DNA from: a virus
Lineage: Duplodnaviria > Heunggongvirae > Uroviricota > Caudoviricetes
Virus record (IMG/VR): IMGVR_UViG_3300027887_000330
Length of the DNA stretch: 64,000 nt
Reading direction: 5' to 3' (one strand)
Each line of letters opens with the position of its first letter. Position 1 is the stretch's first letter. Positions 8,437-44,143 of this stretch are shown here, piece after piece. The position numbers and the translations under genes are program-made. The notes under the pieces are model-generated. The model worked only from the letters and a program-made list of their open reading frames with translations. It was not told where the DNA came from and did no database searches.

Positions 8437-8445
8437 GGAAGCGAA

Positions 8446-9108
8446 ATGTCAGGAAAGTTGGTATTACAGATCTATGAGGACGACGTACCTCTCACCCTAA
8501 TAGGAACTGCTAAAGTAATTATGGGGCTGAAGGACGAACAGATAAGGGAGGTAGCCAATTCTGCAAATGACAGAGCTCACCTCCCTAAGTATTGTAATAA
8601 CAAGGAACATCATCATTATAATGCATGCATAGGTGGAGGCATCTGTTTGGCAAAGAAGTACAAGCGTCTGTTCTCTTTTGTGGACGTGGTATGTACTACT
8701 TGCGATTCGTATGTTATAGTGGATACCTTGAATTATATGTTTAGTGAATACTATGAAGGTAAATACAGAGCTGAATGGAGAAAGACACGTAGGGACAAAC
8801 GCTCTGGCTTCACAGATAAACCGGTAAAGGCTGTTACTAAAAAGCGTGCCAAAAAACAAACCGAGACAGAGCCGATACAGGCTCCAGCCGAACTAAAAAC
8901 AGAGTCAATTACTAAGAAGGACTCCCCTAAAAAGAAAAGGGAGCGGCCACCCAAGCTGTCTATCCAGGCAACTGAAACTGGTCGTGTCTCCGGGATTACT
9001 CCCAATGAGTCCAATAAACCAAAGACATTAACCAAGGCAGTCGTAGAGAGGGGCAAGCCAAGAGTCAAACAGGGGAGACCTAAGAAGAGGACAGCGGAGG
9101 CAGCTTAA
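8446..9108 (+). CDS. Cys/His-rich protein with C-terminal AT-hook-like basic tail (DNA-binding)
   Basis: C-terminus RGKPRVKQGRPKKRT contains GRP AT-hook cores. Lys-rich tail. Confidence 0.4.
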   Translation: MSGKLVLQIYEDDVPLTLIGTAKVIMGLKDEQIREVANSANDRAHLPKYCNNKEHHHYNACIGGGICLAKKYKRLFSFVDVVCTTCDSYVIVDTLNYMFSEYYEGKYRAEWRKTRRDKRSGFTDKPVKAVTKKRAKKQTETEPIQAPAELKTESITKKDSPKKKRERPPKLSIQATETGRVSGITPNESNKPKTLTKAVVERGKPRVKQGRPKKRTAEAA

Positions 9109-10977
9109 ATGACTATGAATGCGTATCAGAAGTTTATTTTTTATCGCACGTACAGCAGATGGATTGCTGAGAAGGGCCGTCGAGAGACCTATAACGAAAC
9201 CGTAGATAGGTATCTAGACTATATATTTTCTAGAGTCCCCAACGCCGACCAGATACCTGATAAGGTGAGGCGGAAAGCAGAGAAGTATATAAAGGGCCTA
9301 AATGTAATGCCCAGTATGCGTGCTCTGTGGAGCGCCGGGGCCAATGCCGATAAGGATAATTCGGTATTTTATAATTGTTCCTTTCTAGTTGTAGATTCTC
9401 TGGAAGCTTTTGGAGAGTCTCTTTATTTGCTGGCGTGCGGTTGTGGCGTAGGTTACAGTGTACAAGCCAAGTATGTAGATGTGCTCCCTGAGATCCCAAA
9501 GCAGCAGAACATGCCTAAATTACAGTTTCTGATTCCAGATGACCGAGAAGGGTGGAAAGCTTCTCTGGACTTCGGGGTTAAGCAATGGTTCAAGGGGCGA
9601 GACGTCGCTTTTGATTACTCCTGTGTAAGGCCCGCTGGCGCGCCTCTGGTAACTTCTGGTGGTTATGCTAGTGGACCAGAGCCATTAAGACGTTGTTTGG
9701 AGTACGCAAGAGATACTATCTTGGGTGCCCAAGGTCGAAAGTTAACTACACTAGAAGTCTCTGACATAATGAATGAGATAGCCTCTGCTATAGTAGTGGG
9801 TGGGGTAAGAAGATCATCTGAGATCGCTCTCACTGATCTACGGGACGTCGACATGAAGACGTCCAAGCATGGTAATTTCCATCCTCGTAGGTTCATGGCT
9901 AATATATCAGCCGTGTACAATAAGAGGCCCGATGTGCTCACATTTGCACAAGAATTCTTTGACATGGCTAAGTCCAAGACTGGCGAGCGCGGAATGTTTA
10001 ATCTCTATGCCGCCAAGCAAAGAGCTCCGCAGCGTAGACGTAAAGGGCCGTTGGCCGGGACCAACCCGTGTGGAGAAATTGTATTAAGAAATATGTCTTT
10101 TTGTAATCTTACTGAGGTTGTTATAAGGCCCGAGGATGATGAAGATTCAGTTAGAGATAAAATAACCACAGCAGTGTGGTTGGGTGCAATGCAGTCCTGC
10201 TTTACCTACTTCCCGCAACTGCGGCCGGAGTGGGCAAAGAATTGTGAGGAAGAGAGGCTGCTAGGGGTATCTTTAACAGGGTGTGCTGACAATCTAGCCC
10301 TACTGCAGCCTGAAGTTCTTAGGATGTGGAAGAAGCACGCTCTCAAAGTATCCAGGCAAGCAGCGGATATACTAGGAATCAACTATGCTGCCGCTGTAAC
10401 TACCATAAAACCTAGCGGAACAGTCAGCCAGATGTGCGATTGTGCTTCTGGTATGCACTCTAGATGGGCTAAATATTACATCCGCAGAGTAAGGATAAGT
10501 TTGCATGATCCACTACTGCAGATGATGAAAGACCAAGGCTTTAAGGTGATCGAAGCTCCGGAGAATAATGACACCTATATACTGGAGTTCCCGATCAAGG
10601 CTCCGGAGGGCTGTAAGACAACGAGGGATGACACAGCCCACGGCCAACTGGAGTGGTACAGATCATTAGTTGAGAACTGGGCAGAACATAATGTCAGTTG
10701 CACTGTCTATGTACGTGATGACGAATGGTTGGATGTCACAAAATATGTCTATGATAATTTTGATCTCATTAATGGTGTATCTTTTTTCCCCTACGAAGAA
10801 CATAGCTACAATATGGCACCATACGAAGAGATCGACGAAGAGACATATAACAAGATGGTCACACAGATGCCTGTGTTAGATTTCAGCCAGCTCACACGCT
10901 ATGAGGATAGAGATATGACAACGGGTCACTACGAAATAGCCTGTGCTGGCAATGCTTGCGAGTTCTCTTTACAGTAA
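9109..10977 (+). CDS. Ribonucleotide reductase large subunit, class II-like (no beta subunit seen in window)
   Basis: Active-site GTNPCGEIVL motif. 622 aa without ATP cone. C-terminal CAGNAC redox tail. Confidence 0.75.
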   Translation: MTMNAYQKFIFYRTYSRWIAEKGRRETYNETVDRYLDYIFSRVPNADQIPDKVRRKAEKYIKGLNVMPSMRALWSAGANADKDNSVFYNCSFLVVDSLEAFGESLYLLACGCGVGYSVQAKYVDVLPEIPKQQNMPKLQFLIPDDREGWKASLDFGVKQWFKGRDVAFDYSCVRPAGAPLVTSGGYASGPEPLRRCLEYARDTILGAQGRKLTTLEVSDIMNEIASAIVVGGVRRSSEIALTDLRDVDMKTSKHGNFHPRRFMANISAVYNKRPDVLTFAQEFFDMAKSKTGERGMFNLYAAKQRAPQRRRKGPLAGTNPCGEIVLRNMSFCNLTEVVIRPEDDEDSVRDKITTAVWLGAMQSCFTYFPQLRPEWAKNCEEERLLGVSLTGCADNLALLQPEVLRMWKKHALKVSRQAADILGINYAAAVTTIKPSGTVSQMCDCASGMHSRWAKYYIRRVRISLHDPLLQMMKDQGFKVIEAPENNDTYILEFPIKAPEGCKTTRDDTAHGQLEWYRSLVENWAEHNVSCTVYVRDDEWLDVTKYVYDNFDLINGVSFFPYEEHSYNMAPYEEIDEETYNKMVTQMPVLDFSQLTRYEDRDMTTGHYEIACAGNACEFSLQ

Positions 10978-20479: not shown

Positions 20480-22510
20480 ATGTTGGATTATAAAAAGATT
20501 AAGCTAGACGATTACAATTTGGAGATCGAGGTTGGGGTAGTTCCTAACAGCTCAACCTCTGATTTCCTTTCTAATCTGAGGGTAGGCAACACTATCGCTA
20601 AGAGCGACTATGAAGAGTTTTTGTTGTCTAGTTTAGTTCGAAATTTCCCTGGCTTGGTAAAACGCCTTGGCTCTATAGCCGATGACCAAGAAAAGAATGT
20701 GATACGACTGCGACTACTGGAAGCTATCTATCATTTAAATTCCAAGCTGCAACCCGGTCATGTAATCATACACGACCAGAGATTGTTACACAGAATGGAT
20801 TCAATACGCGGCGGTGGCCCCTCGGAACCCGTGCTTACAATGAATCCGGGTTGGTTAGATTCCAATAAAGGAGACTTACAAGTGTTTGCTGCCCCTGTAC
20901 AGGAGCTGATTAACAACATATGGGAAGAGCTTAAGTCTGATAGGTCTAAAGACTATACCTTAATGAAGGTGAACGTACTAGAAATGGAACTGCCTATTTT
21001 AGTTCTGTCTAGTACTAAAGTTGATCTGGACGACTTGATCGTGGATTTTTTATTCAAGAAGTGCGATGGTAACTTATTTTTGGCTAAGCACGATCTGAGA
21101 TTATGGATTGGCTATGTACTTGCTGTATCTATACCTCATATAGAGAAAATTATTTATGCCCTGGCCAAATCTAATTACATGAATGCTTACACTGAGAATG
21201 TAATTTATACTCAGATGTACATGTCTGTATTAAAGATTAATCCAGAGTTAAATTGGGAGATCATAGACTGGGACTCATTTCAGAACCAAGAGACCAGCCA
21301 GAAGGAACCAGAAGAGACACGTATACGGCGTATAACTTCCAAGACTCCTCTAACTAGAGAGAAGATTAGGACTTCGCGAGAGGAGGCGGAAGAAGAGAAG
21401 CCAAAGTTTAGGGACGTTCCGTATGAAAAAGTTTTAGGGTTACCCGCTGAGGTAAAGACCAGGATTATAGGGCAGGACCAGGCTGTTGACTCAGTATGTG
21501 AGTCCATAGCTGTAGCTAGAGTGGGCCTCCGGGGAGATAAAAAACCCGTAGGAACGTTCTTGTTTGCCGGAAAAACTGGTGTTGGTAAGACCGAGTTGGC
21601 TAAAGTATTGGCTGATGTCTTAACAGACCATGAGCCCATACGGATAGATTGTTCTGAGTATCAGCAAGCTCACGAGATCTCCAAGATCTTTGGGGCTCCC
21701 CCAGGCTACATAGGATTCGAAGACGATGGCAAGCACCCTAATCAGGGGACTCCACCGGCAACGGTAGCTTCTAAACTGAAGGAAAAACCATTTAGTGTCG
21801 TACTTTTTGACGAAATAGAAAAAGCTGACCCTGCTATTAACAATGTCCTTCTACAAATTATGGACGAGGGGCATGTAACCAGCGGGCGCGGGGAAGTAGT
21901 ATCATTCAACAACGCTGTTGTGATACTTACTTCTAACATCGGTACAGCTGAGGCTGAGGAGGCTTGTTTAAAGGAAGACTTGGGCTTCGTGATAAACGAA
22001 ATTGATAAGTGCTCCCTAGCCGAGGAAACAATTAAGTCATCCATACGAGAAAGGTTTAAACCAGAGTTTCGTAATAGGCTGACGGAGACGATCATATTTA
22101 ATTCTCTAGAGAAGGATACCTGTAAAGGAATAGTAGACGTATTGCTGAGAAAGACCAAGGAGAACCTGGAAAAGGCCCAGCATATATCTATGAAGTGGGA
22201 CGATGCAGTTAGAGATTTTGTACTGAGTGAAGGTTTTAGCGAGGACTTCGGAGCCCGTGAGATGGAACGAGTAATTCAAAAGCAAATAGAATTGCCTCTG
22301 GCTAGGCATATACTAGAAAATAAATACATGACTGCTAAGAAGGCAGAGATGCCAGCCGGGTCTACAATACATCTTAGTATAAAAGCCGGTGAGTTAACAT
22401 TTAAAATTAAGGATGATACTAATGAAAAAACTGATATTCGGAGAGCAAGACTTTCTAGTACAGATGTCACCCCTGGAAGGAAGTCCAGATCGGGTAATAA
22501 TCAGACATAA
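20480..22510 (+). CDS. ClpA/ClpB-like AAA+ ATPase (D2-type module with unknown 300-aa N-terminal domain)
   Basis: GQDQAVDSVCESIA...FLFAGKTGVGKTELAKVLA (Walker A). VVLFDEIEKA (Walker B). sensor/SRH VVILTSNIG. ClpB_D2-small-like C-terminus. Confidence 0.75.
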   Translation: MLDYKKIKLDDYNLEIEVGVVPNSSTSDFLSNLRVGNTIAKSDYEEFLLSSLVRNFPGLVKRLGSIADDQEKNVIRLRLLEAIYHLNSKLQPGHVIIHDQRLLHRMDSIRGGGPSEPVLTMNPGWLDSNKGDLQVFAAPVQELINNIWEELKSDRSKDYTLMKVNVLEMELPILVLSSTKVDLDDLIVDFLFKKCDGNLFLAKHDLRLWIGYVLAVSIPHIEKIIYALAKSNYMNAYTENVIYTQMYMSVLKINPELNWEIIDWDSFQNQETSQKEPEETRIRRITSKTPLTREKIRTSREEAEEEKPKFRDVPYEKVLGLPAEVKTRIIGQDQAVDSVCESIAVARVGLRGDKKPVGTFLFAGKTGVGKTELAKVLADVLTDHEPIRIDCSEYQQAHEISKIFGAPPGYIGFEDDGKHPNQGTPPATVASKLKEKPFSVVLFDEIEKADPAINNVLLQIMDEGHVTSGRGEVVSFNNAVVILTSNIGTAEAEEACLKEDLGFVINEIDKCSLAEETIKSSIRERFKPEFRNRLTETIIFNSLEKDTCKGIVDVLLRKTKENLEKAQHISMKWDDAVRDFVLSEGFSEDFGAREMERVIQKQIELPLARHILENKYMTAKKAEMPAGSTIHLSIKAGELTFKIKDDTNEKTDIRRARLSSTDVTPGRKSRSGNNQT

Positions 22511-25719: not shown

Positions 25720-26070
25720 CTATCCGTATGAGTACGAAAACACCCAGCCGGGACTTGTTGAGGGCGTTATGTTGTATTTCCTTAGTGTTGCAAGAAGAGA
25801 AGTATTCCACTCTATTTTCTTGAGTTGATTATCTTCAACGAACTGCACGAAGTCTTCGTCTGAGTAACGGGCTATTAAGATTACCAGAGCCGGTTCATTC
25901 TCATCGTGTATAAAATGAGGGCTCTCTTCGTTTCCCCAGGAATAGGTATCGTAAAGTGCATCTCTTTGATCCTCTGAGAGACAGTGTAGATCCTCTTTTG
26001 TTAGTCGATACCCCCATCCAATGTATGAACTAGAACTCGAATTGGTTACAAATTTAGATCGGTAAATCAT
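25720..26070 (-). CDS. MFYR-family paralog 1 (start at MIYRSKFVTNSSSSS)
   Basis: Conserved N-terminus and C-terminal SPGWVF motif. The track ORF extends 8 codons upstream. Confidence 0.6.
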   Translation of the reverse strand: MIYRSKFVTNSSSSSYIGWGYRLTKEDLHCLSEDQRDALYDTYSWGNEESPHFIHDENEPALVILIARYSDEDFVQFVEDNQLKKIEWNTSLLATLRKYNITPSTSPGWVFSYSYG

Positions 26071-26414
26071 GATGCGTGGTGTGTGAAGAACCATCCAGGA
26101 CTCAGACCTTCAGTGTCTAAGCCTAGGTTTTTACATTGCTCCTGTATTGCTTCTGCCCATTCAGGTTTTACTGAGTCCCCGAATGTGTTGATGCAGATGG
26201 TTCCGTAGTAGTCGTCCAAGTCTTGGTAGGACTCTGAGATGTAAACTAGGTAGTTGTCATCGTCTGAGCAGCCTTCTACTATCTTGTCTCCGTCGTAGAG
26301 TTTGTCAAAGAAGTCATCTGGCTTCTCTCTTAGTCTATTCTCAGGGATAACTATACCCCAAGCTACGAATGAAGTGGTGCTCGAATTGGTTATAAATTTG
26401 CTGCGGTAGAACAT
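26067..26414 (-). CDS. MFYR-family paralog 2 (start MFYRSKFITNSSTTSF)
   Basis: Start ATG overlaps the stop of the upstream paralog (TGATG). C-terminal SPGWFF. Confidence 0.6.
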   Translation of the reverse strand: MFYRSKFITNSSTTSFVAWGIVIPENRLREKPDDFFDKLYDGDKIVEGCSDDDNYLVYISESYQDLDDYYGTICINTFGDSVKPEWAEAIQEQCKNLGLDTEGLSPGWFFTHHAS

Positions 26415-26728
26415 CAGCCGTCGTACCATCCGTCTTCGATGTAACCTATGGTATCATCCACATTGTTCCTCTTGGCCCATGCTTCCAGGGCTTTGTACTT
26501 TTCCTGCAGTTCATTGGCGGGGCCAAAGACTATCATTCCTTCTTTGTCTATGCTCACCGTCGGAAAGCCAATAGTGAGATACACCACGTCTCCGGGTGTC
26601 CAGTATTCCTGTATTCCTTCTGGTAGCCCCTCTTCAATTTTATCAAATGTTCCTCGGTGAACCTCTATTCCAAACGCTACCAAAGATGTGCTGCTTGAAT
26701 TCGTTACGAATAATTTCCTGTAAAACAT
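26414..26728 (-). CDS. MFYR-family paralog 3 (MFYRKLFVTNSSSTSL)
   Basis: Conserved N-terminus. C-terminal EDGWYDG. Confidence 0.6.
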   Translation of the reverse strand: MFYRKLFVTNSSSTSLVAFGIEVHRGTFDKIEEGLPEGIQEYWTPGDVVYLTIGFPTVSIDKEGMIVFGPANELQEKYKALEAWAKRNNVDDTIGYIEDGWYDG

Positions 26729-27180
26729 TAGCTATACCAGTTGTCCTCCACTATCTGTATTTGTTCGTCAAGGCCCACTCCCACAATTATGTCCATGAGC
26801 TCTTGGTAACCATCCACCAACGCTTGGTCATCATGTATGAAAGTAACGCCCGTTTCTGTTATGCCTATGTGAGGAAAACCTATACACAGGTAAAACCGAT
26901 CCCCGTCGGGGGGAAGTTCCATGTAGACTGTCCCTGTAGGAAGCACAGCCTCCAGGAATTCATAGTCCATATCGTTTTCTTCCAGATACTTTCCAGGGTC
27001 TCCCAGAAAAGCATCGGAATCCACGTTGGGCCAACTATTAATTATTTCCAAAGCCTTAGCAGTATTCTTTTCTACATAATAGGTGCAGATGTCTACCATC
27101 GTTCCCCGGTCCAGTTCTATTCCAAAGGCTATGAACGAGCTCGAACTTGAGTTTGTTACAAATTTTTGTCGGTAAAACAA
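26728..27180 (-). CDS. MFYR-family paralog 4 (MFYRQKFVTNSSSSSF)
   Basis: Conserved N-terminus. C-terminal EDNWYS. Strongly acidic. Confidence 0.6.
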   Translation of the reverse strand: MFYRQKFVTNSSSSSFIAFGIELDRGTMVDICTYYVEKNTAKALEIINSWPNVDSDAFLGDPGKYLEENDMDYEFLEAVLPTGTVYMELPPDGDRFYLCIGFPHIGITETGVTFIHDDQALVDGYQELMDIIVGVGLDEQIQIVEDNWYS

Positions 27181-27435
27181 TTACCACTCCTTGTTTTCTA
27201 CCATCCTAACAATTTCCTCTACAGGAAGCTGCTTGTGGTCTTTGTAATCCTGTATTGCTCCCTCAATTTCATTTGTTATCCTGACGAGATCTGGTGTCAA
27301 GTGCTGTCCGTCATCATCCTCGTAGTTAGCGGCACAACGTATAAGGCGGCGGGCTTCTTTCAAGGATTTCAGGGCATCCAGTATCACGTAGGAACTTGAA
27401 CTTGAGTTCGTTATATGTTTTGGTCGATAAAGCAT
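27181..27435 (-). CDS. MFYR-family paralog 5 (start MLYRPKHITNSSSSSY)
   Basis: Internal Met gives the conserved N-terminus. The track ORF has a 17-codon upstream extension. Confidence 0.5.
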   Translation of the reverse strand: MLYRPKHITNSSSSSYVILDALKSLKEARRLIRCAANYEDDDGQHLTPDLVRITNEIEGAIQDYKDHKQLPVEEIVRMVENKEW

Positions 27436-27436
27436 C

Positions 27437-27784
27437 TTAATGTCCTGAGTTATAGAATCCCCAAGCAGGGCTGTCGTCCATGTCAAAGCCGTACTTGGTA
27501 ACTGCTTTCTTTAACTCTGTTAAAGCCGCCACTTCGTCAATTTCTTTGTGCCCAATAGGTTGCCAAATCCCATACTCGAACGCAGGTAACTCTGACGCCT
27601 TGATATAAAACAAAGCGGAGCCCTCATCCATGTATGTCCTGGCTATACCCACAGGGCCATCTTCATATATATCTGCTTCTGCTAGTTCATCATACCTTTT
27701 AGGATCATTCGCTCGGGCGTAAACTCCGTAGGCTATGAAACAAGTCGATGAGCTGTTCGTCACAAACTTTGCTCGGTAATACAT
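27437..27784 (-). CDS. MFYR-family paralog 6 (MYYRAKFVTNSSSTCF)
   Basis: Conserved N-terminus. C-terminal SPAWGF. Confidence 0.6.
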   Translation of the reverse strand: MYYRAKFVTNSSSTCFIAYGVYARANDPKRYDELAEADIYEDGPVGIARTYMDEGSALFYIKASELPAFEYGIWQPIGHKEIDEVAALTELKKAVTKYGFDMDDSPAWGFYNSGH

Positions 27785-28215
27785 TAAGTCCTCACATCAA
27801 TCGCTACTCTCCAAGCGGGTTCAGCTGTGCTGTCCCCATAAGCAGTAGCGGTAATTCCGTACTCCAGACAGAAGAGTTTTATTTTGTGCATCCACTCTTC
27901 TTCTTTTGCCTTGCTTTCTTGTAGGTGATCTATAGGGAGATCATCTACGCTGCCCTCTAGGGACCAATATGAATTATTGATATAGGCCATGCCGCTTTGG
28001 CAGTCAGGATCTATGTATAATCCTATGTCTCCCTTTAAGGTCTCTGCCCAGTCCCATAGTATTTGAGACTGATCTTCCCACGTAGCTTTGGTGAGCTCTT
28101 CCGGCGGGATTATTTTTTCTAGTATATTATTAGCTGAGTCTTCATCAAAATTAATTCCAAAGAAAATGAAACTCGTTGAAGAAGAGTTCGTTACGAACTT
28201 TTGTCTGTAAAACAA
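27784..28215 (-). CDS. MFYR-family paralog 7 (MFYRQKFVTNSSSTSF)
   Basis: Conserved N-terminus. C-terminal EPAWRVAI. Confidence 0.6.
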   Translation of the reverse strand: MFYRQKFVTNSSSTSFIFFGINFDEDSANNILEKIIPPEELTKATWEDQSQILWDWAETLKGDIGLYIDPDCQSGMAYINNSYWSLEGSVDDLPIDHLQESKAKEEEWMHKIKLFCLEYGITATAYGDSTAEPAWRVAIDVRT

Positions 28216-28605
28216 TTAGCGCTCCACGTGTATGGCTATCTGCCACGATGGCGTATGATAGGGGAGACCTTGGTTGTCACAAAGCTCCTTGATTGCCTGA
28301 TTCCATTCTTTATTCTTATCACGAGAAAATAATTTAAGTAAAATCTGGACCGGAAGAGCTTCGACTCCGCTTTCATCGAGGCCAATGTAGCTTTCTTTGG
28401 CATAAACCATAGCTCTTTCGACTTCCCAGCAATGATGTAGTCCCGCTGTAGACTCTTTATCACAGTCAAGCCTATAGGCTAGGTCTTGTAAAGACTCTCC
28501 TCCAGAGAATGATTCTCGCTCTACATCTTTTGTTCTGAATTCTATCCCATAAAAGATGAAACTCGTTGATGAACTGTTAGTTACAAATTTAGTCCTTAGG
28601 AACAT
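28216..28605 (-). CDS. MFYR-family paralog 8 (MFLRTKFVTNSSSTSF)
   Basis: Conserved N-terminus. C-terminal TPSWQIAI. Confidence 0.6.
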   Translation of the reverse strand: MFLRTKFVTNSSSTSFIFYGIEFRTKDVERESFSGGESLQDLAYRLDCDKESTAGLHHCWEVERAMVYAKESYIGLDESGVEALPVQILLKLFSRDKNKEWNQAIKELCDNQGLPYHTPSWQIAIHVER

Positions 28606-29322: not shown

Positions 29323-31302
29323 CTATAACGTAGCGTTGATGGCGTCCATGAGATCACCCTCGGACCAGATCAACACCTTATTGTCCTTGGCAAAAGTCAG
29401 TTTCTTGGGACCGGCTTCCTTGCCAGCTAAAAGTATGTTAACTTTAGCACTCAAGGAACCCACGCATTTTCCTCCGTACTGAGCTATAAGAGCTTTGAGA
29501 TCCTCGCGCGGGGTGCTGTGATTTCCTGTGACTACAAACACCTTTCCTTTCAGCTTGTCGCTGGTTACGGTAACCGAAGCGACTTCGTCAAACGTCATCA
29601 GGTGTAGCAGCCCGTTTACCAAGTTCCTGTTTACTTGCTGGCTGAAGAATTGTTTTGTGTTCTCTGCAATAGCCGTTCCAATACCGTCCAAAGATAAGAT
29701 GTCTTTAGTATCGGCGTCCATGACAGCTTCCATAGTCTTGAACTTCTCTGCGAATTGTTTTGAGACACTGCGCCCTACCAGAGGAATACCTAACGAATAG
29801 ATGAACCTATCCAGAGTAGTGGCCCTGGCTTTCTGTATGGCCGCTATGATCTTTGCTGCCAGCTTGTCCCCCATCCTCTCCAACCCTGCAAAATGCAAAG
29901 GCATAAGAGTAAACAGATCGTAGGGGCTTTGAATTATTTTCTTATTAACCAGCTGTTCGACGACCTTCTCGCCCAGCCCCTCTATGTTTAGGGCGTCCCG
30001 GCAGACGAAGTGTTTGATGCTCTCAGCCAGTTGTGCTATACATGTTTTATTGGTACAGCGTAAGGCGGCCTCTCCTGTAATCCTGACGGCTTTGCTTCCA
30101 CAGGCAGGGCAAGTATCAGGTATTATGAAAGGACCGTCAGTTTTCTTCTCAGAGACTTTAACGACCTCTGGGATAACATCCCCCGCCCGTTGGATTATAA
30201 CCTTGTCACCGACGTTGATGTTCTTGGCGTTCAACATGTCTTGGTTATGCAGCGTGGCCCTGGATATGGTGGCTTGTCCCACTTTCACCGGCACTAACTC
30301 GGCCACAGGAGTCAGAGTCCCTGTTCTGCCTACCTGCACTGTGATGCTCTTGACTGTTGTCTCTGCCTGTTCAGCCTTGAATTTGAGAGCGATGGCCCAC
30401 CGAGGTGCTCGGGAGGTGAAGCCCAGCTTCTCCTGTTCATCTGTTCGGTTTACTTTTATGACAGCTCCGTCTATATCATACGGGAACTTGGACCTGTCTT
30501 CCTCTATTTTCTTTACTTGGTCTACCAAACCATCCACAGACTTAACATGAAAGGTGACCGAAGACGGAATGTGCAGACTGTCAAGAAAGAGTTGCTTCGC
30601 CGTTTGACTATCTAAATCTCTCCCCTCTGCTAGTAACTCGTACCCGAAGAAGCGAAGTCTTCTCTTGGCCGCCTTTTGAGGGTCGAGATTTCTTACCCCT
30701 CCCGCTGCGGCATTACGAGGGTTGACATAGGTATCTTCTCCCTCAGCCTCTCGCTCTGCATTGATGGCTAAAAGGTCTTTTTTGTAAATAACAACTTCTC
30801 CGCGTACACGGAAGAACAGATTAGAGTCAAACTTACCTCCCACATCAAGAGGGATACCCCTGATTGTCCGTATGTTGTGGGTGACGTCTTCCCCAGTTTC
30901 CTTGTCGCCCCGCGTAGCAGCCAGCACAAACTTGTTAGCGTCATAAACCAGCTCTATCGCTAGTCCGTCGAGCTTAGGCTGCACCACAAAATCAGAAGAT
31001 CCAGTCTTCTTCGCCCACTTCCGCAGTTCGTCTAGGCTGAATACATTATCCAAGGACAGCATGGGGACGGCGTGCTTAACCTTCGTGAAGCTGCTTAGGG
31101 GGGCGGAACCCACGCGCTGGGTGGGGCTAGTGGAGACGATCAGATCAGGATAAGCCTTCTCCAGGTCCTGCAACTCCTTCATCTTCTCGTCGTATTCTTG
31201 GTCTGATATGGTAGGAGAGTCCAACGCGTGGTACTGATAATTGGCGTTGTCAATCTCCCCGCTGAGTTCCTTAATCCTCTTTTCAGCTTGCTCTTTTGTC
31301 AT
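29323..31302 (-). CDS. ligA: NAD-dependent DNA ligase LigA
   Basis: Adenylation motif KLDGLAIELVY (KxDG). OB domain. Cys4 zinc finger CPACGS...C..C. HhH region. C-terminal BRCT (VFVVTGNHSTPREDLKALIAQYGGK). 659 aa. Confidence 0.9.
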   Translation of the reverse strand: MTKEQAEKRIKELSGEIDNANYQYHALDSPTISDQEYDEKMKELQDLEKAYPDLIVSTSPTQRVGSAPLSSFTKVKHAVPMLSLDNVFSLDELRKWAKKTGSSDFVVQPKLDGLAIELVYDANKFVLAATRGDKETGEDVTHNIRTIRGIPLDVGGKFDSNLFFRVRGEVVIYKKDLLAINAEREAEGEDTYVNPRNAAAGGVRNLDPQKAAKRRLRFFGYELLAEGRDLDSQTAKQLFLDSLHIPSSVTFHVKSVDGLVDQVKKIEEDRSKFPYDIDGAVIKVNRTDEQEKLGFTSRAPRWAIALKFKAEQAETTVKSITVQVGRTGTLTPVAELVPVKVGQATISRATLHNQDMLNAKNINVGDKVIIQRAGDVIPEVVKVSEKKTDGPFIIPDTCPACGSKAVRITGEAALRCTNKTCIAQLAESIKHFVCRDALNIEGLGEKVVEQLVNKKIIQSPYDLFTLMPLHFAGLERMGDKLAAKIIAAIQKARATTLDRFIYSLGIPLVGRSVSKQFAEKFKTMEAVMDADTKDILSLDGIGTAIAENTKQFFSQQVNRNLVNGLLHLMTFDEVASVTVTSDKLKGKVFVVTGNHSTPREDLKALIAQYGGKCVGSLSAKVNILLAGKEAGPKKLTFAKDNKVLIWSEGDLMDAINATL

Positions 31303-34051: not shown

Positions 34052-34390
34052 TCAACCGCGCTCAAACTTACGTGTCTTTTCTTCCTTGGGCTTAAGTTCC
34101 TTACGCAGGTATTTGAGGGCCTTTTCAGGCATCATGGAGGGCATACAAGTGTAGACATCGAGTGATATGTAGTCATGTTCTGGACTATAATGAGCGCTCA
34201 TGTGCGATTCTGCGAGCATCACGATAGCTGTTGCACCCTGTGGCTCGAATTGGTGTCCCATATAATCGAGCACCTTACAGCCTGCAATCTTAGCCGTGTC
34301 TAACAACAGAGCTACCAAATCATACTCGTTGCTTATCCTCTCCGGATCGCAACCATACCAGTCTAGTAGTAGGTGTGTCCCCTTTTCCAT
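34052..34390 (-). CDS. speD: Pyruvoyl-dependent S-adenosylmethionine decarboxylase proenzyme (SpeD/SpeH type; the pyruvoyl arginine decarboxylase relative is not excluded)
   Basis: HLLLDWYGCD...LAESHMSAHYSPEHDYISLDVYTC matches the class 1 AdoMetDC core, including the ES self-cleavage site. Confidence 0.75.
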   Translation of the reverse strand: MEKGTHLLLDWYGCDPERISNEYDLVALLLDTAKIAGCKVLDYMGHQFEPQGATAIVMLAESHMSAHYSPEHDYISLDVYTCMPSMMPEKALKYLRKELKPKEEKTRKFERG

Positions 34391-36730: not shown

Positions 36731-37258
36731 TTAGTGGTGATTCATGGTGACTACACCACCAACACCTTTCTTTTCCAGTATGTTCACACTACCTGAGTGA
36801 TAGTCCATCGCGGAGGCGTAGGACCCTGAGTCGTCAGCATACTCAATGTGGACAATACGATAGCCGCGTTTTACGGCACCCAGTAATTTAGAATATGCTC
36901 TGATCCTCTGCTTTGTGTAGTAGCTAAAGCCGTGTTTTTCTCCTCGATCTTTAATAAGCCACTTCACCTCTTCTAAGATGCTGGCCCGGAGGCCGGGGAT
37001 ACTAAATTCCTCTAACCGTTCTTTGAAGTGGGGAGAGTTCGAGGCCTCCAGTTTGGCCATGGCTTCTTTGTCTTCTTGTTCTGTCCGGAGGAAATCCCTC
37101 AGTAAATTAAGGCTGTCTATTTTGAACCCGTCATCAGCAAAGATAGGTGTTAGGCCGATCTCGTCAAAGAATTCGTGGCTGATGTTTTGATTCTGTGGGA
37201 TAAAGAAATAGTAGCCTGAGCTTGAGGAATTGGTTACAAATTTAGGTCTGTAGAACAT
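36731..37258 (-). CDS. MFYR-family paralog 9 (start MFYRPKFVTNSSSSGY)
   Basis: Internal Met restores the conserved N-terminus. The same 45-nt DNA block sits at the start. Confidence 0.55.
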   Translation of the reverse strand: MFYRPKFVTNSSSSGYYFFIPQNQNISHEFFDEIGLTPIFADDGFKIDSLNLLRDFLRTEQEDKEAMAKLEASNSPHFKERLEEFSIPGLRASILEEVKWLIKDRGEKHGFSYYTKQRIRAYSKLLGAVKRGYRIVHIEYADDSGSYASAMDYHSGSVNILEKKGVGGVVTMNHH

Positions 37259-37268
37259 CACTTTATCC

Positions 37269-37592
37269 TTAACACTGGAATGAATACCAGCCAGAACTGT
37301 CTGTGCCGTATTCGATTTCATCTTCAGCGAAGTGACCTAAATATTCTATATCGTAGAAAATGGCACAACCCTTTCCAATTTTATCTCTCACTACAGCCTG
37401 TGCTCCTTCGTCCATATAATCGTCCAGCTCCTCTGCGGTTCCTCCAGTAAATATGGACTCTCCACAATGAGGGCATCTGAGATTACCGGGACTGTAATTC
37501 TTCATCTCCGTGGGGTAATTTTCAGGGTCTTTCTCCCATATTATCATACAGGAGGAGGAGGAGTTTGTCACAAATTTAGGTCTGTAATGCAT
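37269..37592 (-). CDS. MFYR-family paralog 10 (MHYRPKFVTNSSSSCM)
   Basis: Conserved N-terminus. C-terminal SSGWYSF. Contains CPHCGE. Confidence 0.55.
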   Translation of the reverse strand: MHYRPKFVTNSSSSCMIIWEKDPENYPTEMKNYSPGNLRCPHCGESIFTGGTAEELDDYMDEGAQAVVRDKIGKGCAIFYDIEYLGHFAEDEIEYGTDSSGWYSFQC

Positions 37593-37787: not shown

Positions 37788-38126
37788 TTAATCTCTCACG
37801 AACTGGCTTCGGTTCTCGAAGTGGTCAAACTCCCGCACCTGGTCAATGTAGTAGGTGCCCGCGGGCAGGGTGATGGTATTGTGCTCCTCGTGGGAGATGG
37901 TGCACGGCTCAGTGAGTTCGAAAACTATCATGTTGTTGCTGGCCTGCTTCGGAACAAACTTCACAATCTTGCCACGGATCACGTGGGAATGTCCTGTGGT
38001 TTCCCCTTGTGCAACAACCAGCTCTCCGACATCCTGTTTGTCCCTCTTCATCGCTTCTTCGCGCTGCCAATGCGGTAATTCGCTTACCGGCTTAATTAGT
38101 ACGTCGCCTTGTTGAAAATAATTCAC
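37788..38126 (-). CDS. Hypothetical protein
   Basis: 112-aa ORF. Confidence 0.4.
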   Translation of the reverse strand: MNYFQQGDVLIKPVSELPHWQREEAMKRDKQDVGELVVAQGETTGHSHVIRGKIVKFVPKQASNNMIVFELTEPCTISHEEHNTITLPAGTYYIDQVREFDHFENRSQFVRD

Positions 38127-38138
38127 TGCTTTGTCTCC

Positions 38139-39272
38139 TTAGGTCAATATAATAGGGACAGCATTGGTACCATTTCTGTATTCCAAAGCTGCCGCTACGG
38201 TAGTGGTCCTTGGTTCCACGCCCTCGATGTGCCAGGTTCCAGTGGACGGGTTTAACATTTTCAGATAGGGCCGATTTCGGTTAGCATCAATCGCCAGATT
38301 GACTAACTCATACTTGCCGTCGTCGCTCTTGTCTAGGAGGGTGGCCCCTAATTCTGCAAGTACCCTCTCAATTCCTATCTTTCTGACTAGCTCGCGCCGG
38401 ATCTCAGCGTTTCTAGTTTTTGTGATCATTTCGGCCTTCAGCTTTTCGGCTGGGGTAACAACGACCTGCTTCGATACCCGAACGTCATTCATGCAGTAGA
38501 TGCCCGACTTCAGTTTAGGAAAGTAAATTGCCGGGCCGTCCTCGCGGTGTAGGAAGTTCCTGCTGTCTATGTGTAGAACAGGTTTTTCCACCAGGATCAG
38601 CTTGTTGTTTATGAACAGGATCGAATACAAGTTCAAGGCTATTGTCTCACAGGCCTTGATGTATTTCAAAGTTGTCTTGGCGTCCTCGACATAGTACTTG
38701 CCAAGGGCATAGACCTTCGGGTAGTTCGCTACCCTAAGGGGCAGAACCGATCTGGAGTAGTAATTACGGGTTCTCCAGTCGGTTACGATAGGGGATTTCT
38801 TGTTCAGGTTGTACATCTTCCCAGAGATGGTCTTGGCCTGATTGACTAGTCTATTCACCCGTCCTATATAAAGCTGGGTGATGACCCCGATGTCGAGGAA
38901 AGTATCAAGGAGCTCTTGTGGCGGCTTTGGCTCCGCCCAGTAACCGAATAGGCCTGAGTGTAGAAGACTGTTGACAGTGGAAAGTTTGTTAGTAACTCCC
39001 CAATGAGCCTTATAATAGCTGGACATTTGTTCAGCTAGTGTAGCCTCTCCTACCTTTGCTGGCTCAAGGTCTTTGGTTTTGAGCTCCGAAAGCCATAGTA
39101 ATTTAGGCTTCTTGGGAACTACAGCGATGTCTGCCACAACCGTGCGAACAGCTTTAAACACATCCGATTCGCTGTCCGTCTTATCCCCGATCAGCCGCCC
39201 CTTGAAAAATAAGGCTTGATCCTGAATTTCCTTCATCAATACTTTGTCTTTAGGGTCTAATTTTACATCCAT
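38139..39272 (-). CDS. Hypothetical protein coupled to the radical SAM gene
   Basis: 377 aa. Start overlaps the stop of the radical SAM gene. Confidence 0.5.
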   Translation of the reverse strand: MDVKLDPKDKVLMKEIQDQALFFKGRLIGDKTDSESDVFKAVRTVVADIAVVPKKPKLLWLSELKTKDLEPAKVGEATLAEQMSSYYKAHWGVTNKLSTVNSLLHSGLFGYWAEPKPPQELLDTFLDIGVITQLYIGRVNRLVNQAKTISGKMYNLNKKSPIVTDWRTRNYYSRSVLPLRVANYPKVYALGKYYVEDAKTTLKYIKACETIALNLYSILFINNKLILVEKPVLHIDSRNFLHREDGPAIYFPKLKSGIYCMNDVRVSKQVVVTPAEKLKAEMITKTRNAEIRRELVRKIGIERVLAELGATLLDKSDDGKYELVNLAIDANRNRPYLKMLNPSTGTWHIEGVEPRTTTVAAALEYRNGTNAVPIILT

Positions 39273-40312
39273 TAAATCGTTCGCTCCGTTTTTTCACATG
39301 GGTTTATGCCAGGCAACACATGACAACTATGACATAGGTCGTTAACATCACAGCCTGGGCACGCCGTGGTCACTTTTTCTCGGTAAGGTTGGAGTTTCTC
39401 TTTCCATATCTCCTCAAAAGAGTGGTCATGTAAACTAAACTTGTCTTTGAGATTGAAAGAGCAGGGAGATACGGTGAGATCCTCCCCAACAAACACGCTG
39501 AAGCAACCACTGTCACAAGGTCCGAGTGTATATCTCGGAAGGTCTTGGCGGGGCACAATGGACATAAGGGAGGGTGAAAAGCAACTATCAATTCCTACGC
39601 TTACCTTTCCCTTATAATTCCTCAGGGATTTTACAAACCTGAGTTTCTGGTCTCGATGGGGATGCTGTTCCCAGCTCCCCCGCCCGATGGGTTTGTGCAT
39701 CAAACAGATACACGAATACAGAGGGTATTTCCCGCCGAACAAACCCTCTCCCTGTGCTGCTATGTCTAGTTCGTGGCCCCACTCATCAATGTGTGCCTTG
39801 TCTAAAACGACATGGATAGCGGGCTCTATCCCTGCCTCTAGCAGCCGTTCAACCTCCTTTAACGCCGTCCGTCTGTTGTGCATCGAAATTGCTACAGCTC
39901 CAGCATAGCGTTTGGTAGCCTCTAGTATCTCGTCTGTCATGTCTACGCCATTTGAAGTGTAGCTGGGCGGTATTCCTTTGTCATGAGCGATCCTCAGGAT
40001 CTCGATGAATTCGGGGTGGTGCTGCGGGCTGCCGCCCCCAATTGCAACTTGAAGAACGTGAGGACTCATAGCGTCTAATACTGCCGCGAAATCCGACGGA
40101 CTCATGTGGTGACTCTTACTAGGGTCGCTCTCCCTGTAACAATACTCACAGTTAAGAGGACAATAGTCAGTAATATGAATGTCCGCTAGCTCCGGACCGT
40201 GCAGAGAAAATTTTGGATCTGAATAACCGGGTTTTTCCTTCCTTAAGAACTCTCCTGTTTCCACATCGAAAAAAACCACATAAGTTCCGTAATCAATGAC
40301 TTTGATTGGCAT
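39272..40312 (-). CDS. Radical SAM enzyme with C-terminal SPASM-like auxiliary Fe-S domain
   Basis: CPLNCEYC (CxxxCxxC) near the N-terminus. C-terminal CFSVFVGEDLTVSPC then CPGCDVNDLCHSC then C fits the SPASM pattern. Confidence 0.7.
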   Translation of the reverse strand: MPIKVIDYGTYVVFFDVETGEFLRKEKPGYSDPKFSLHGPELADIHITDYCPLNCEYCYRESDPSKSHHMSPSDFAAVLDAMSPHVLQVAIGGGSPQHHPEFIEILRIAHDKGIPPSYTSNGVDMTDEILEATKRYAGAVAISMHNRRTALKEVERLLEAGIEPAIHVVLDKAHIDEWGHELDIAAQGEGLFGGKYPLYSCICLMHKPIGRGSWEQHPHRDQKLRFVKSLRNYKGKVSVGIDSCFSPSLMSIVPRQDLPRYTLGPCDSGCFSVFVGEDLTVSPCSFNLKDKFSLHDHSFEEIWKEKLQPYREKVTTACPGCDVNDLCHSCHVLPGINPCEKTERTI

Positions 40313-40509
40313 TCAACCTCCTTAAGTGGACTCCTCTTCTTGCTCTACCAGCTCACCTTCCAAGGAGTTTATCTCCCCGGATAGCCAGTCCATTGCTTGG
40401 TGGAGTGTCTGGAAGCCTTTATCATAGTATTTTCCCAAGATAGCTTCGTCGTCTTGGAATTCCTTGATAGCGGCCTCTATGTTCAGTCTTTCCAGGGAAG
40501 ATTTAGGCA

Positions 40510-41073
40510 TTAGTCCTCCTCGTCAAATTCCTCTGTGAAGTCCTCGTCGAGCCTGACCTCTCCGGGAGTCACTATCAGAGTCATGTGCTCAATAGAAAGG
40601 TTCTCTATAGTGATGTTGACCACCTGGGTGGGCCGTGGCTCGAAAGGTTTTAAGGCTGTGGCCCCCAGCACAAAACGGCCGGGATCGTCGCCTTCCACGT
40701 CATAATCTGGGCTTAGACCCCCAGCCGCTGCCTTAGGGGGGCTGTCAGTCTTGGCCTCATCCGGAGACATGGCCTTCTGGTTTGTCTTCGTGTAAGTTGC
40801 CGCGTTGGTCCCTGAGACATGATACAAAGTTGCCTCTGTATTAGATCCGTTAGGAAGTTTCACATCAATTGTGGTTGTTGTGTACTTGAATCCGTATTGT
40901 GGGGCCATGTTAACCACATTGGTCCGTAGAAAGTCTGCCACGTCTCTGTTCCGGACCCAGTCTCCTCTCTGTTTAAGAGAATTGGCTATGTCTACAGAGG
41001 TAAACATCTTTCCTCTCTGCATCCATTGCCCTGCTTCTACTCTAATCTTGCTTGCATCTGCTGGTGAACACAT
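40510..41073 (-). CDS. Hypothetical protein with acidic C-terminal tail
   Basis: 187 aa. Confidence 0.4.
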   Translation of the reverse strand: MCSPADASKIRVEAGQWMQRGKMFTSVDIANSLKQRGDWVRNRDVADFLRTNVVNMAPQYGFKYTTTTIDVKLPNGSNTEATLYHVSGTNAATYTKTNQKAMSPDEAKTDSPPKAAAGGLSPDYDVEGDDPGRFVLGATALKPFEPRPTQVVNITIENLSIEHMTLIVTPGEVRLDEDFTEEFDEED

Positions 41074-41594: not shown

Positions 41595-42095
41595 TCAATT
41601 TTCCTTTACCCTCTCCCAAGAAGCGATCTTCATGTCACTGTTATCTACACTGAAGGCCGAGTTTATTTCTACCCCTCTACTCCAGCCGGGAAGGTCCCCG
41701 TTTCCTCCGCTGAGGTGCTCAAGAGTTTTTGAAACCTCAAGATACTTTTGCTTATCTCTCTTAGCTAATTTTCCTAGGAGTAGCCGTATCTCATGGTTAA
41801 CTTGTCCGCGAGATATTGTCATTGGATACAGGTGTCTTTCTCTCCTGTGTATCAGGGAGCGATCAAACTTATATCCTCTGTGAGTTCCCTCCCAATAGAT
41901 CTCCATGAGATAACAACCTATAGCGGAGAGTGGCTCGCTGTGGGTTTTAAATCTTTCCATCTGCGGATGAGTGCCATAGGATAGTTTGTATGGCGGGCCA
42001 GCTATTAATATCCTTTGTGCATGTAGAGCTTCCCGCCACAATCCCAATAGGCCCATCCTGTCAAGAAGTTCCGGATGAATGGACCAAAGTCTCAT
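41595..42095 (-). CDS. Possible pyrimidine-dimer DNA glycosylase (T4 endonuclease V/DenV-like)
   Basis: N-terminal MRLWSIHPELLDRMGLLGLWREALHAQ resembles the Pyr_excise family N-terminus. Weak. Confidence 0.35.
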   Translation of the reverse strand: MRLWSIHPELLDRMGLLGLWREALHAQRILIAGPPYKLSYGTHPQMERFKTHSEPLSAIGCYLMEIYWEGTHRGYKFDRSLIHRRERHLYPMTISRGQVNHEIRLLLGKLAKRDKQKYLEVSKTLEHLSGGNGDLPGWSRGVEINSAFSVDNSDMKIASWERVKEN

Positions 42096-42739: not shown

Positions 42740-44143
42740 TTACTCTTCCAGTTCTATGAGGTATGTTACTGTGCATTGCTCCAATTTGTAGACAATGAAT
42801 TCGTCGTTGTATAGGCTGCCCAGTCGTGCGAGGGCAGAAATACTGTGGTAACCTGACGGGGCACCCTGTGTTTTGGAGGAGCCCACCTCATAGGTTTTAC
42901 CCATAGCGAATTTACATCTCAAAAGGAACGTGTTTTTGAATGTGTTTCTCCTACCAGACCATCCCCCTACGCTGTAGTTTAATGACTTAGTAGATGAATT
43001 AGCGCCATAGATACCATTCCCAAACATTCTCCCGGTGACGTGCCCGGCAGAAACCGGAGGTATAATGAGGCCGCCCAGCATGATGCTGAGTAAATTAGCG
43101 TTCTGAGATCCGTGAAAGAATTCTTGTGTGTTTCCATATTTGGCTTCGGCCTTTTCGTACCTTTCCCGCTCCTTCCCAATCTTTATTATGTAGGCGTTCT
43201 TTACTTTCCACCTATCCAGATGGGCGTGTTTCTTTGTTCCGTTAACCGTATCCACCAAGTCTTTGTAGACTTTTGTTTTCTTGTCTATAGGCTCTATGTC
43301 AGTTTCGAATCCGCTGAACTGCTTAGAGGCATTGGTATTGGTAGTCATACCCATCTTTACGGACGCCTCTAGCTGGTCTAGCAAGTCATATTCTTCAGCG
43401 AGTTTAACATCGGTTATGATCCAGTCGTCTCTCGTTATTTTTCTTCCAAACTGATGGGGGATCTTACTGTAATAGAAGTTATTACTCATCCGGGTGATTT
43501 CTTTGTCCGGATCTATCTGGCCATCCTCAGACATCATATCCTTCAGATCATTCAGCGCCCGTCGAGCGTCATTAACCGTGTTAATGGTTACTGGCCCCAG
43601 CGCGGTCTCAAGTCCGTTTGCGGTAAGCGTGATGCTGGAGAGTGACGTAACTTTATGTATGTTTTCTTGTGCGAACTGCTCGATCAGCCGCTGGACATCT
43701 GGGTCAAATCTAGACGCTTCGTTAATTATCTCCTTGGCAGAAAGTTGAGTTGCTACGTCTTTAGTTGCCTTGCCCCTTACGTTAGGGGAACCTACTGTAG
43801 GACTAACCAACTCTACTAACTCATAATTCTCTCGGCGTGAAGACCCATCTTCTTCTTTTATGTTCTTTCCCTTGAGCTTCTTCTTAACTATGGAATCAAA
43901 TTCACTCTCCGCATTATAGAGAGCAGGCCATGGCCCGCGCTCGTCATAGACGCTGCTGGTATTTATTCTCCCATAGTGTGTAAAAAGTCTGTAATTCCCT
44001 GAGGCCGGGTCATGCTGTATCTCTATGGAGTAGAACTTATTATTATTCCCCTCGATATTTCCACAGCATAAAACCGTATGCTTAATTGTTTCTGTATAAG
44101 GACCGGGGCTGTCATCATACAGTTTCGTTGCTTTTACTGCCAT
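42740..44143 (-). CDS. Poly(ADP-ribose) polymerase homolog (WGR domain, helical domain and PARP catalytic domain)
   Basis: N-terminal WGR-like FYSIEIQHDPASGNYRLFTHYGRIN. Catalytic FHGSQNANLLSIMLGGLIIPP...VTGRMFGNGIYGANSSTKSLNY...YNDEFIVY aligns with the PARP1 H-G-S, G-I-Y and YNEYIVY blocks, giving an apparently intact H-Y-E triad. Confidence 0.8.
   Translation of the reverse strand: MAVKATKLYDDSPGPYTETIKHTVLCCGNIEGNNNKFYSIEIQHDPASGNYRLFTHYGRINTSSVYDERGPWPALYNAESEFDSIVKKKLKGKNIKEEDGSSRRENYELVELVSPTVGSPNVRGKATKDVATQLSAKEIINEASRFDPDVQRLIEQFAQENIHKVTSLSSITLTANGLETALGPVTINTVNDARRALNDLKDMMSEDGQIDPDKEITRMSNNFYYSKIPHQFGRKITRDDWIITDVKLAEEYDLLDQLEASVKMGMTTNTNASKQFSGFETDIEPIDKKTKVYKDLVDTVNGTKKHAHLDRWKVKNAYIIKIGKERERYEKAEAKYGNTQEFFHGSQNANLLSIMLGGLIIPPVSAGHVTGRMFGNGIYGANSSTKSLNYSVGGWSGRRNTFKNTFLLRCKFAMGKTYEVGSSKTQGAPSGYHSISALARLGSLYNDEFIVYKLEQCTVTYLIELEE

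Follow-up and report, generated by a model that had tools for sequence, protein, structure and literature searches.

A SPASM-type radical SAM enzyme from a large phage and its conserved companion, a family of TNSSS-tagged proteins

The KpAvs2 operon of bacteria combines the Avs2 sensor with the radical S-adenosylmethionine (SAM) protein Avap1 and the small protein Avap2, which has an HHpred match to DUF6375 (Bechon et al. 2024, PMC11564622). Avap2 binds the KpAvs2 sensor, is required for defence and is not deletable while Avap1 and KpAvs2 are present; Avap1 is required against T2, but not against SECphi18, and yielded no viperin-type nucleotide products, nor does its model have a nucleoside triphosphate (NTP) pocket (PMC11564622). 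FxsB/FXSXX-COOH and other STAND- or vWA-linked systems likewise join a radical SAM/SPASM protein to a short motif on a variable protein in NTPase conflict systems; their motif (FxSxx and others) is C-terminal and released by a peptidase (Kaur et al. 2020, PMC7159879). Here we describe a radical SAM enzyme whose C-terminal domain is of SPASM type, encoded in a stretch of 64,000 nucleotides of viral DNA (Caudoviricetes; IMG/VR record IMGVR_UViG_3300027887_000330), referred to as the window, together with a family of small proteins recognised by a TNSSS tag. Unlike the FxsB-type motif, the TNSSS tag is N-terminal, keeps a fixed register from Met1 and has no associated peptidase. Judged from gene neighbourhoods across phages and bacteria, the conserved companion of the enzyme is this tagged family and not the DUF6745 protein whose gene overlaps that of the enzyme. 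To our knowledge, the pairing is undescribed within the literature searched, which gave nothing relevant on the TNSSS tag or on phage radical SAM enzymes.

The association was examined from both sides. Relatives of the enzyme were fetched from IMG/VR and other assemblies as 41 distinct viral loci, and all but about seven of these contain 1–11 tagged genes, mostly abutting the radical SAM gene. In locus L002, the gene directly after that of the enzyme encodes a TNSSG variant, which lies outside the tag pattern used. In the reverse test, loci were retrieved by alignments of tagged proteins alone and a relative of the enzyme was sought within 6 kb; it was present in 69/77 and 15/26 loci, and most loci without one were truncated or were distal arrays on contigs of huge phages. 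Among 80 bacterial and archaeal genome loci, 78 have a tagged gene abutting the start of the radical SAM gene, and both exceptions are contig edges. Besides the enzyme and the tagged genes, no third conserved component was seen in the phage loci. The first-pass annotation had mentioned MFYR-family tag peptides in passing as candidate substrates; the tagged proteins correspond to that family, and the aside turns out to be the better lead. The enzyme alone would be one more uncharacterised SPASM radical SAM protein. Its significance lies in the context, a clade tied to an unannotated family defined only by the TNSSS tag and present in hundreds of bacterial species as well as in huge and ordinary phages.

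A motif scan located ten tagged genes in the window, all on the strand of the enzyme gene, two at 36731-37592 and eight at 25720-28605 (Table 1), against 0.04-0.1 matches expected from shuffles. The eight genes of the array (25720..28605) abut one another and encode paralogues of 84-150 aa, each starting M-[FYLI]-[YL]-R-x-[KL]-[FH]-[VI]-T-N-S-S; M1, R4, T9, N10, S11 and S12 are invariant in the alignment of the window's tagged proteins (A5). As a family, the tagged proteins have 100-200 aa and a hydrophobic strand at the very N-terminus, after which comes (T/S)-N-S-S-(S/T)-x-x-aromatic. The consensus of the tag is M-[KF]-[IV]-R-x-[GK]-F-[VI]-[TS]-N10-S-S-S-[TS]-S-F-phi-x-[YFW]-G20, beyond which the sequences diverge. 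A profile built from proteins of the window type retrieved at least 1,371 cluster representatives (50% identity) out of 1.84 billion. Of the 145 best independent cluster representatives, 131 have the Asn at residue 10, and N-S-S, the Phe at −3 and the Gly at +10 are invariant in 141/141 aligned ones. The variant of the tag follows the clade of the enzyme, being MF[YL]RxKFVTNSSS in huge phages, MK[IV][KR]xDFV[TS]NSSS in the bacterial type and HSxVDxITNSS[ST] beside the short phage enzymes. The family is unnamed in the libraries and databases searched, and NCBI and UniProt label its members 'hypothetical'. In the AlphaFold2 model of the array protein 27784-28215, a flexible tag (residues 1–12; predicted local distance difference test <50) precedes a confidently folded domain.

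Several smaller observations concern the tagged proteins. The carrier-domain model gives weak Foldseek matches in BFVD (E 2e-4 to 5e-3, TM 0.4-0.5), all of them uncharacterised giant-virus proteins, from Clandestinovirus, Klosneuvirus, Pithovirus LCPAC302 and Marseillevirus LCMAC101. The tagged protein 37269-37592 contains a zinc-ribbon-like stretch (CPHCGE...CxxC) that the other paralogues lack, and it has weak NCBIfam matches to CxxC small proteins (E 0.0016). A bacterial tagged protein of 266 aa (L193:5146-5946) appears to combine one N-terminal tag with two carrier domains fused in tandem. Eleven tagged genes surround the radical SAM gene on a 381-kb phage contig (L001), where the tagged array is interrupted by two IS605 OrfB/TnpB (Cas12f-like) genes (L001:2087-3046 and 8205-9308, minus strand).

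Directly downstream of the enzyme gene lies the gene for a 377-aa protein. Both open reading frames (ORFs), their overlap and their positions on the minus strand agree with the first-pass annotation. The junction reads TTTAATGG, and the stop TAA and the start ATG have one base in common in TAATG. The downstream protein belongs to DUF6745 (PF20530, 41.3 bits against a gathering cutoff of 27, residues 223-328), with a conserved C-terminal domain of about 150 aa common to 43 homologues (alignment A4) and a variable N-terminus; it has no PHROG, PADLOC, PDB-sequence or phage-genome match, and no relevant literature was found on DUF6745. The overlap had been taken to mean that the two proteins are probably a functional pair. 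In such a translationally coupled pair, DUF6745 would be the substrate, a chaperone or a second enzyme. Such coupling would fit the one-base overlap, the DUF6745 gene directly downstream of the enzyme gene in the 87% identical relative (L004) and, as two tandem copies, in a 71% relative, and an independent adjacency in the distant locus L038. The wider distribution of DUF6745 makes it very unlikely, and DUF6745 was rejected as the partner. Its gene is upstream of the enzyme gene with two genes between in the 69% relative, absent beside the enzyme in the 56-57% relatives, and present without any radical SAM gene in loci L007 and L008. It occurs on a single contig (L038 = L061, beside a short radical SAM gene) among about 140 viral loci and in 0/80 bacterial loci. 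The constant neighbour of DUF6745 is instead a protein of about 110 aa with a GExxGHxH motif, encoded directly after it in 6/6 loci with DNA examined, including two that lack the enzyme (Table 1); DUF6745 and this protein thus constitute a two-gene module of their own. The pairing of DUF6745 with the His-rich protein persists in phages unrelated to the window phage.

The 175-aa tagged protein of the window is an end-to-end homologue of the product of the gene directly after the radical SAM gene in L002:7072-7617 (BLASTP, E 8e-9). We therefore judge that the DUF6745 module entered the lineage of the window by insertion, separating the enzyme gene from the nearest tagged gene. Short overlaps between successive genes are the rule across this gene block, and by this measure the 1-nt overlap is a reflection of tight gene packing, not of partnership with DUF6745. 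No paralogue of the enzyme or of the DUF6745 ORF was found elsewhere in the window. The analysis sets right a tempting but mistaken conclusion from a single base shared by two genes.

The only Pfam match of the 346-aa enzyme is Radical_SAM (PF04055, E 1.5e-15, above the curated cutoff), and the hallmarks of the superfamily are present, namely the CX3CX2C motif for the SAM-binding [4Fe-4S] cluster, the profile match and a partial TIM-barrel fold. The gene has a strong Shine-Dalgarno sequence, AAGGAGG, 5 nt ahead of the ATG. Conservation of the Cys residues (51, 55, 58, 201, 203, 244, 266, 270, 284, 318, 321, 327, 330 and 339) was read from an alignment of the window protein with 32 homologues. 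C51-x3-C55-x2-C58 (CPLNCEYC), which had been recognised as CxxxCxxC, is invariant in all 33 sequences; given the Pfam match and the conservation of the Cys across 52 homologues, the motif is not a chance occurrence. Outside it, C244, C266, C284 and C321 are invariant, and conservation is 90% or more at C318, C327, C330 and C339. C266-x17-C284 is predicted to form a β-hairpin, followed by C318-x2-C321-x5-C327-x2-C330 and then C339. The first-pass annotation had read the CX2CX5CX2C run and the last Cys correctly; its CX13C pair (C270-C284) relies on C270, a residue without conservation across the family, where C266...C284 is the conserved pair, and the invariant eighth Cys, C244, was overlooked. 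Ahead of the core, about 40 N-terminal residues are predicted to form three short strands, with G20, R24, P33 and P40 conserved.

The SPASM subgroup was defined by the seven-Cys motif CX9-15GX4C ... CX2CX5CX3C ... C. The family of the enzyme has this motif with C244 as an extra eighth Cys, as in anSME. Two deviations were noted. The position of the Gly is occupied by G or D among the relatives, and the huge-phage clade has CX2CX5CX2C, with CX2C instead of CX3C, where the relatives of 33-38% identity have the canonical CX2CX5CX3C; the difference is a one-residue deletion. Pfam SPASM (PF13186) matches 14 of 33 family members (best E 3e-8; present in the precomputed annotation of the relatives P0022, P0023, P0026 and P0027), and the window protein itself has no match at E<=1. 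A profile of the family gives E 3e-12 with SuiB and E 3e-7 with anSME, in alignments that span the stretch between the cluster motif and the end of the Cys-rich tail, and in structure the C-terminal domain corresponds to that of SPASM enzymes already solved. The conserved eight-Cys pattern, the alignment with SuiB and anSME and the PF13186 matches of the homologues thus bear out the early assignment, and support a radical SAM enzyme of SPASM type as opposed to QueE, viperin, HemW or NrdG; the profile and structure comparisons gave no HemW- or NrdG-like placement. From these sequence features we propose that the protein is a three-cluster enzyme of an uncharacterised, widespread clade.

Comparison with solved structures, which had been suggested at the outset, gave table values of 25.8 for SuiB (299 residues aligned), 23.4 for SkfB, 20.6 for PqqE, 19.7 for anSME, 19.6 for CteB, 19.2 for BlsE, 18.9 for TigE, 18.9 for viperin, 18.7 for ChlB, 17.5 for MoaA, 13.4 for PFL-AE and 11.3 for QueE. 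Each of the five closest is a SPASM enzyme that modifies peptides or proteins, and the alignments extend through the C-terminal domain, with an identity to the window enzyme of only 15-19% (SuiB, 5V1Q; SkfB, 6EFN; PqqE, 6C8V; anSME, 4K36; CteB, 5WGG). As compared to these known maturases, the conserved three-strand N-terminal mini-domain of about 40 residues is unique to the window enzyme, and the putative substrate motif, an N-terminal TNSSS without Cys, matches none of those of known SPASM substrates. An element for the recognition of RiPPs (peptides made on the ribosome and modified after translation), a winged helix of about 80-100 aa, was not found: only about 40 residues precede the core, with no PqqD or other N-terminal Pfam match at E<=1. 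Altogether, 49 radical SAM/SPASM families of NCBIfam match the enzyme, every one far under its cutoff; the best is MftC (TIGR03962), with 51.5 bits against a cutoff of 265 over residues 44-330. The named equivalogs MftC, NirJ, AhbD, PqqE, AlbA, anSME, MoaA and viperin were rejected on these scores.

A different possibility is that the reaction concerns a small molecule or nucleotide (for example a viperin-like chain terminator, a modified nucleoside or DNA base, or a cofactor) and that the tagged genes are simply co-inherited. PADLOC models of pVip do match the enzyme (residues 45-145, E 1e-14), the gene sits in a replication and nucleotide block with genes for DNA polymerase, ribonucleotide reductase, ligase, PARP and glycosylase, and relatives without SPASM Cys exist. 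The pVip matches are, however, confined to about residues 45-163, the shared radical SAM core, and NCBIfam viperin_w_prok, aligned to no more than residues 44-144, reaches 45.5 bits with a cutoff of 180, so that an identity as viperin or pVip was rejected. The nature of the five nearest structures also speaks against a small-molecule substrate, as do the lack of viperin-type nucleotides and of an NTP pocket in the case of Avap1. Abutting tagged genes in more than 150 loci of unrelated phages and bacterial phyla would be hard to account for without a direct link, and we consider action on a small molecule decidedly improbable.

Within the clade the enzyme varies. Phage relatives of about 270-310 aa (L017-L041, L048-L124; IMG/VR contigs) have no SPASM Cys left; core, N-terminal mini-domain and hairpin (..SLYEPE..S.Y..L.D..KVY.SSF) are retained. 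Some relatives have CX4CX2C or CX7-8CX2C at the cluster motif. In three loci (L031:6305-8591, L050:6296-8561 and L089:8928-10343), a short radical SAM gene is split at CX3CX2C by an insertion that ends ...(H/Y)(F/Y)xxN(G)ILVHNC and resembles an intein C-terminal junction.

In bacteria, a STAND NTPase gene adjoins the enzyme and tagged genes in 73/80 loci (PADLOC Avs2 E 1e-20 to 1e-42; Pfam SMEK_N), so that these loci have the make-up of the Avap1 operon, an Avs2-type STAND gene plus a small accessory. The enzymes encoded there are 33-38% identical to that of the window. Two arrangements occur. Type A, to which most bacterial loci belong, has the order SMEK_N or other effector-STAND protein (about 850-890 aa), 133-aa protein, tagged protein and radical SAM enzyme; the STAND protein matches Pfam SMEK_N at 1e-39 to 1e-45 and PADLOC Avs2 at about 1e-20, and an annotated example lies on pAt of A. 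tumefaciens Ach5 (Ach5_RS23265-23250). Type B has one or two copies of the tagged protein, the enzyme and an Avs2-like protein of 1300-1370 aa that matches PADLOC Avs2 with E 1.8e-42, aligned from residue 5 (examples L013, L164 and L232). The operons of the bacterial homologues thus have the same three parts as KpAvs2, a small (tagged) protein, a radical SAM enzyme and an Avs2-like STAND protein, and differ from it in that most use the shorter STAND protein and the extra 133-aa protein. The window and all other true phage loci differ further: no STAND gene was seen beside the window enzyme or in any huge-phage or short-enzyme phage locus examined. Within the plasmid collection, the pair was found only in Rhizobiales and Rhodobacter, and the collections searched gave no Klebsiella or E. 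coli match. No relevant literature was found on STAND with SMEK.

The best explanation of the whole, towards which we lean with restrained confidence, is that the enzyme is a maturase acting on the TNSSS-tagged proteins, possibly for counter-defence. In such a reaction the flexible N-terminal tag would dock on the enzyme and probably extend the three-stranded mini-domain by a further strand; the mini-domain would stand in for the RiPP recognition element. The invariant N-S-S would be positioned over SAM and the [4Fe-4S] cluster, and the 5'-deoxyadenosyl radical would take a hydrogen from a residue within N-S-S. The auxiliary clusters may then finish the reaction, for which oxidation (Ser to formylglycine, as in anSME), epimerisation or a crosslink are candidates. 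In phages, the matured proteins might bind host STAND sensors or act as decoys for them. Since the pair is an accessory of Avs2-like STAND proteins in bacteria and is sensor-free in phages, counter-defence by way of host STAND sensors is a reasonable guess, one that the phage copies without a sensor suggest.

A number of observations weigh against this proposal. The short phage enzymes that have lost the SPASM Cys are still preceded immediately upstream by 1–4 tandem tagged genes (HSxVDxITNSST); a shared function can therefore not need the auxiliary clusters in all lineages, and a strictly anSME-like oxidation would be weakened as a model. Relatives in T4-like Klebsiella and Enterobacter phages (L006) have no tagged gene nearby, and the tagged genes of the window are 1.7 kb and 10.7 kb away from the enzyme gene. 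The equivalence of Avap1 and Avap2 to the enzyme and tagged protein we infer from operon architecture alone, and the tagged proteins gave no match to Pfam DUF6375 with HMMER. The substrate relation itself we infer from genomics and structure prediction, and the tagged proteins could be adaptors or regulators instead. They would then bind through the tag and either hold the enzyme inactive or guide it to a third protein, which would be the STAND sensor in bacteria and a host or phage protein in phages. Such a role would suit many diversified paralogues under one constant tag, each with a different target, and the retention of the tag association by enzymes without SPASM Cys; it also agrees with Avap2, which binds the KpAvs2 sensor and cannot be removed while Avap1 and KpAvs2 are present (PMC11564622). 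A disordered, invariant, Ser-rich N-terminal peptide in a fixed register is, however, more typical of a substrate motif that is modified or recognised, and the phage loci offer no third conserved component, which leaves a purely adaptor or regulatory role rather unlikely.

Returning to the tagged proteins as substrates, a more specific scenario, which we regard as speculative and would give about one chance in five, is that phages captured the accessory half of an Avs2-type operon and expanded the tagged protein into arrays (ten copies here), which the enzyme would mature so as to silence or decoy STAND sensors. If true, the tag would be a new enzyme-installed protein modification used by both the phage and the host sides, and would open a way to understanding what Avap1 and Avap2 do. 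The enzyme and tag pairing lies close to these reported and mechanistically unexplained accessories of Avs2, and the tag is a concrete candidate substrate for the chemistry of the radical SAM accessory of the Avs2 operon.

Table 1. Coordinates of the enzyme, the tagged genes and other features of the window
Feature	Coordinates	Strand	Size	Remarks
Radical SAM enzyme with SPASM-type C-terminal domain	39272..40312	-	346 aa	N-terminal three-stranded mini-domain (residues 1-40), then core with C51/C55/C58; auxiliary-cluster Cys C244, C266, C284, C318, C321, C327, C330, C339
DUF6745 protein	38139..39272	-	377 aa	Start overlaps stop of the enzyme gene by 1 nt
Protein with GExxGHxH...HxEH...REYDHF motifs	37788..38126	-	112 aa	phrog_27831 (PHROG match)
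Copies of the GExxGHxH protein in other loci	L004:3680-4024; L005:7139-7507; L007:7207-7542; L008:6870-7241; L038:10309-10605		~110 aa	Partner of DUF6745
TNSSS-tagged protein (MHYRPKFVTNSSSSCMII...)	37269..37592	-	107 aa	CxxC pair further on; orthologue in L004; motif scan, alignment A5
TNSSS-tagged protein (MFYRPKFVTNSSSSGYYF...)	36731..37258	-	175 aa	Motif scan; orthologue in L002 (56% relative) directly downstream of the enzyme gene
TNSSS array, first four	28216-28605, 27784-28215, 27437-27784, 27181-27435	-		Motif scan
TNSSS array, last four	26728-27180, 26414-26728, 26067-26414, 25720-26070	-		Motif scan
Acidic ORF (..LERLNIEAAIKEFQDDEAILGKY..)	40322-40510	-	58-62 aa across loci	Immediately upstream of the enzyme gene
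112-aa ORF	34052-34390	-	112 aa	AdoMet_dc candidate by syntenic position and equal size only
Pyrimidine-dimer DNA glycosylase (Pyr_excise)	41595-42095	-		
WGR + PARP_reg + PARP catalytic protein	42740-44143	-	467 aa	E 2e-22
NAD-dependent DNA ligase	29323-31302	-		
Lon-like ATP-dependent protease	20480-22510	+		
Ribonucleotide reductase	9109-10977	+		
DNA polymerase	6487-8436	+		

By its gene content, the window is a replication and nucleotide-metabolism/repair block of a large phage; a helicase is also encoded in it. The closest homologues of the enzyme (51-87% identity) are on metagenomic contigs of up to 647 kb with the common synteny PARP ... radical SAM enzyme ... DUF6811 ... 254-aa protein ... 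AdoMet_dc. Deposited phage genomes with a more distant relative number 166; as this counts relatives of this enzyme alone, the remark in the first-pass annotation that anaerobic chemistry in a phage is notable was overstated. Among the huge-phage relatives, L002, L007 and the contigs of P0002 and P0015 keep the PARP-like gene a few kb upstream of the enzyme gene. At the position that corresponds to the 112-aa ORF 34052-34390, genes of equal size in L004, L005 and the contigs of P0002 and P0015 are annotated as PF02675 (AdoMet_dc, a pyruvoyl-dependent decarboxylase). The acidic ORF is conserved in three loci, lying directly 5' of the enzyme gene in L004:1253-1441 as well, with a third related copy at L005:5739-5915.

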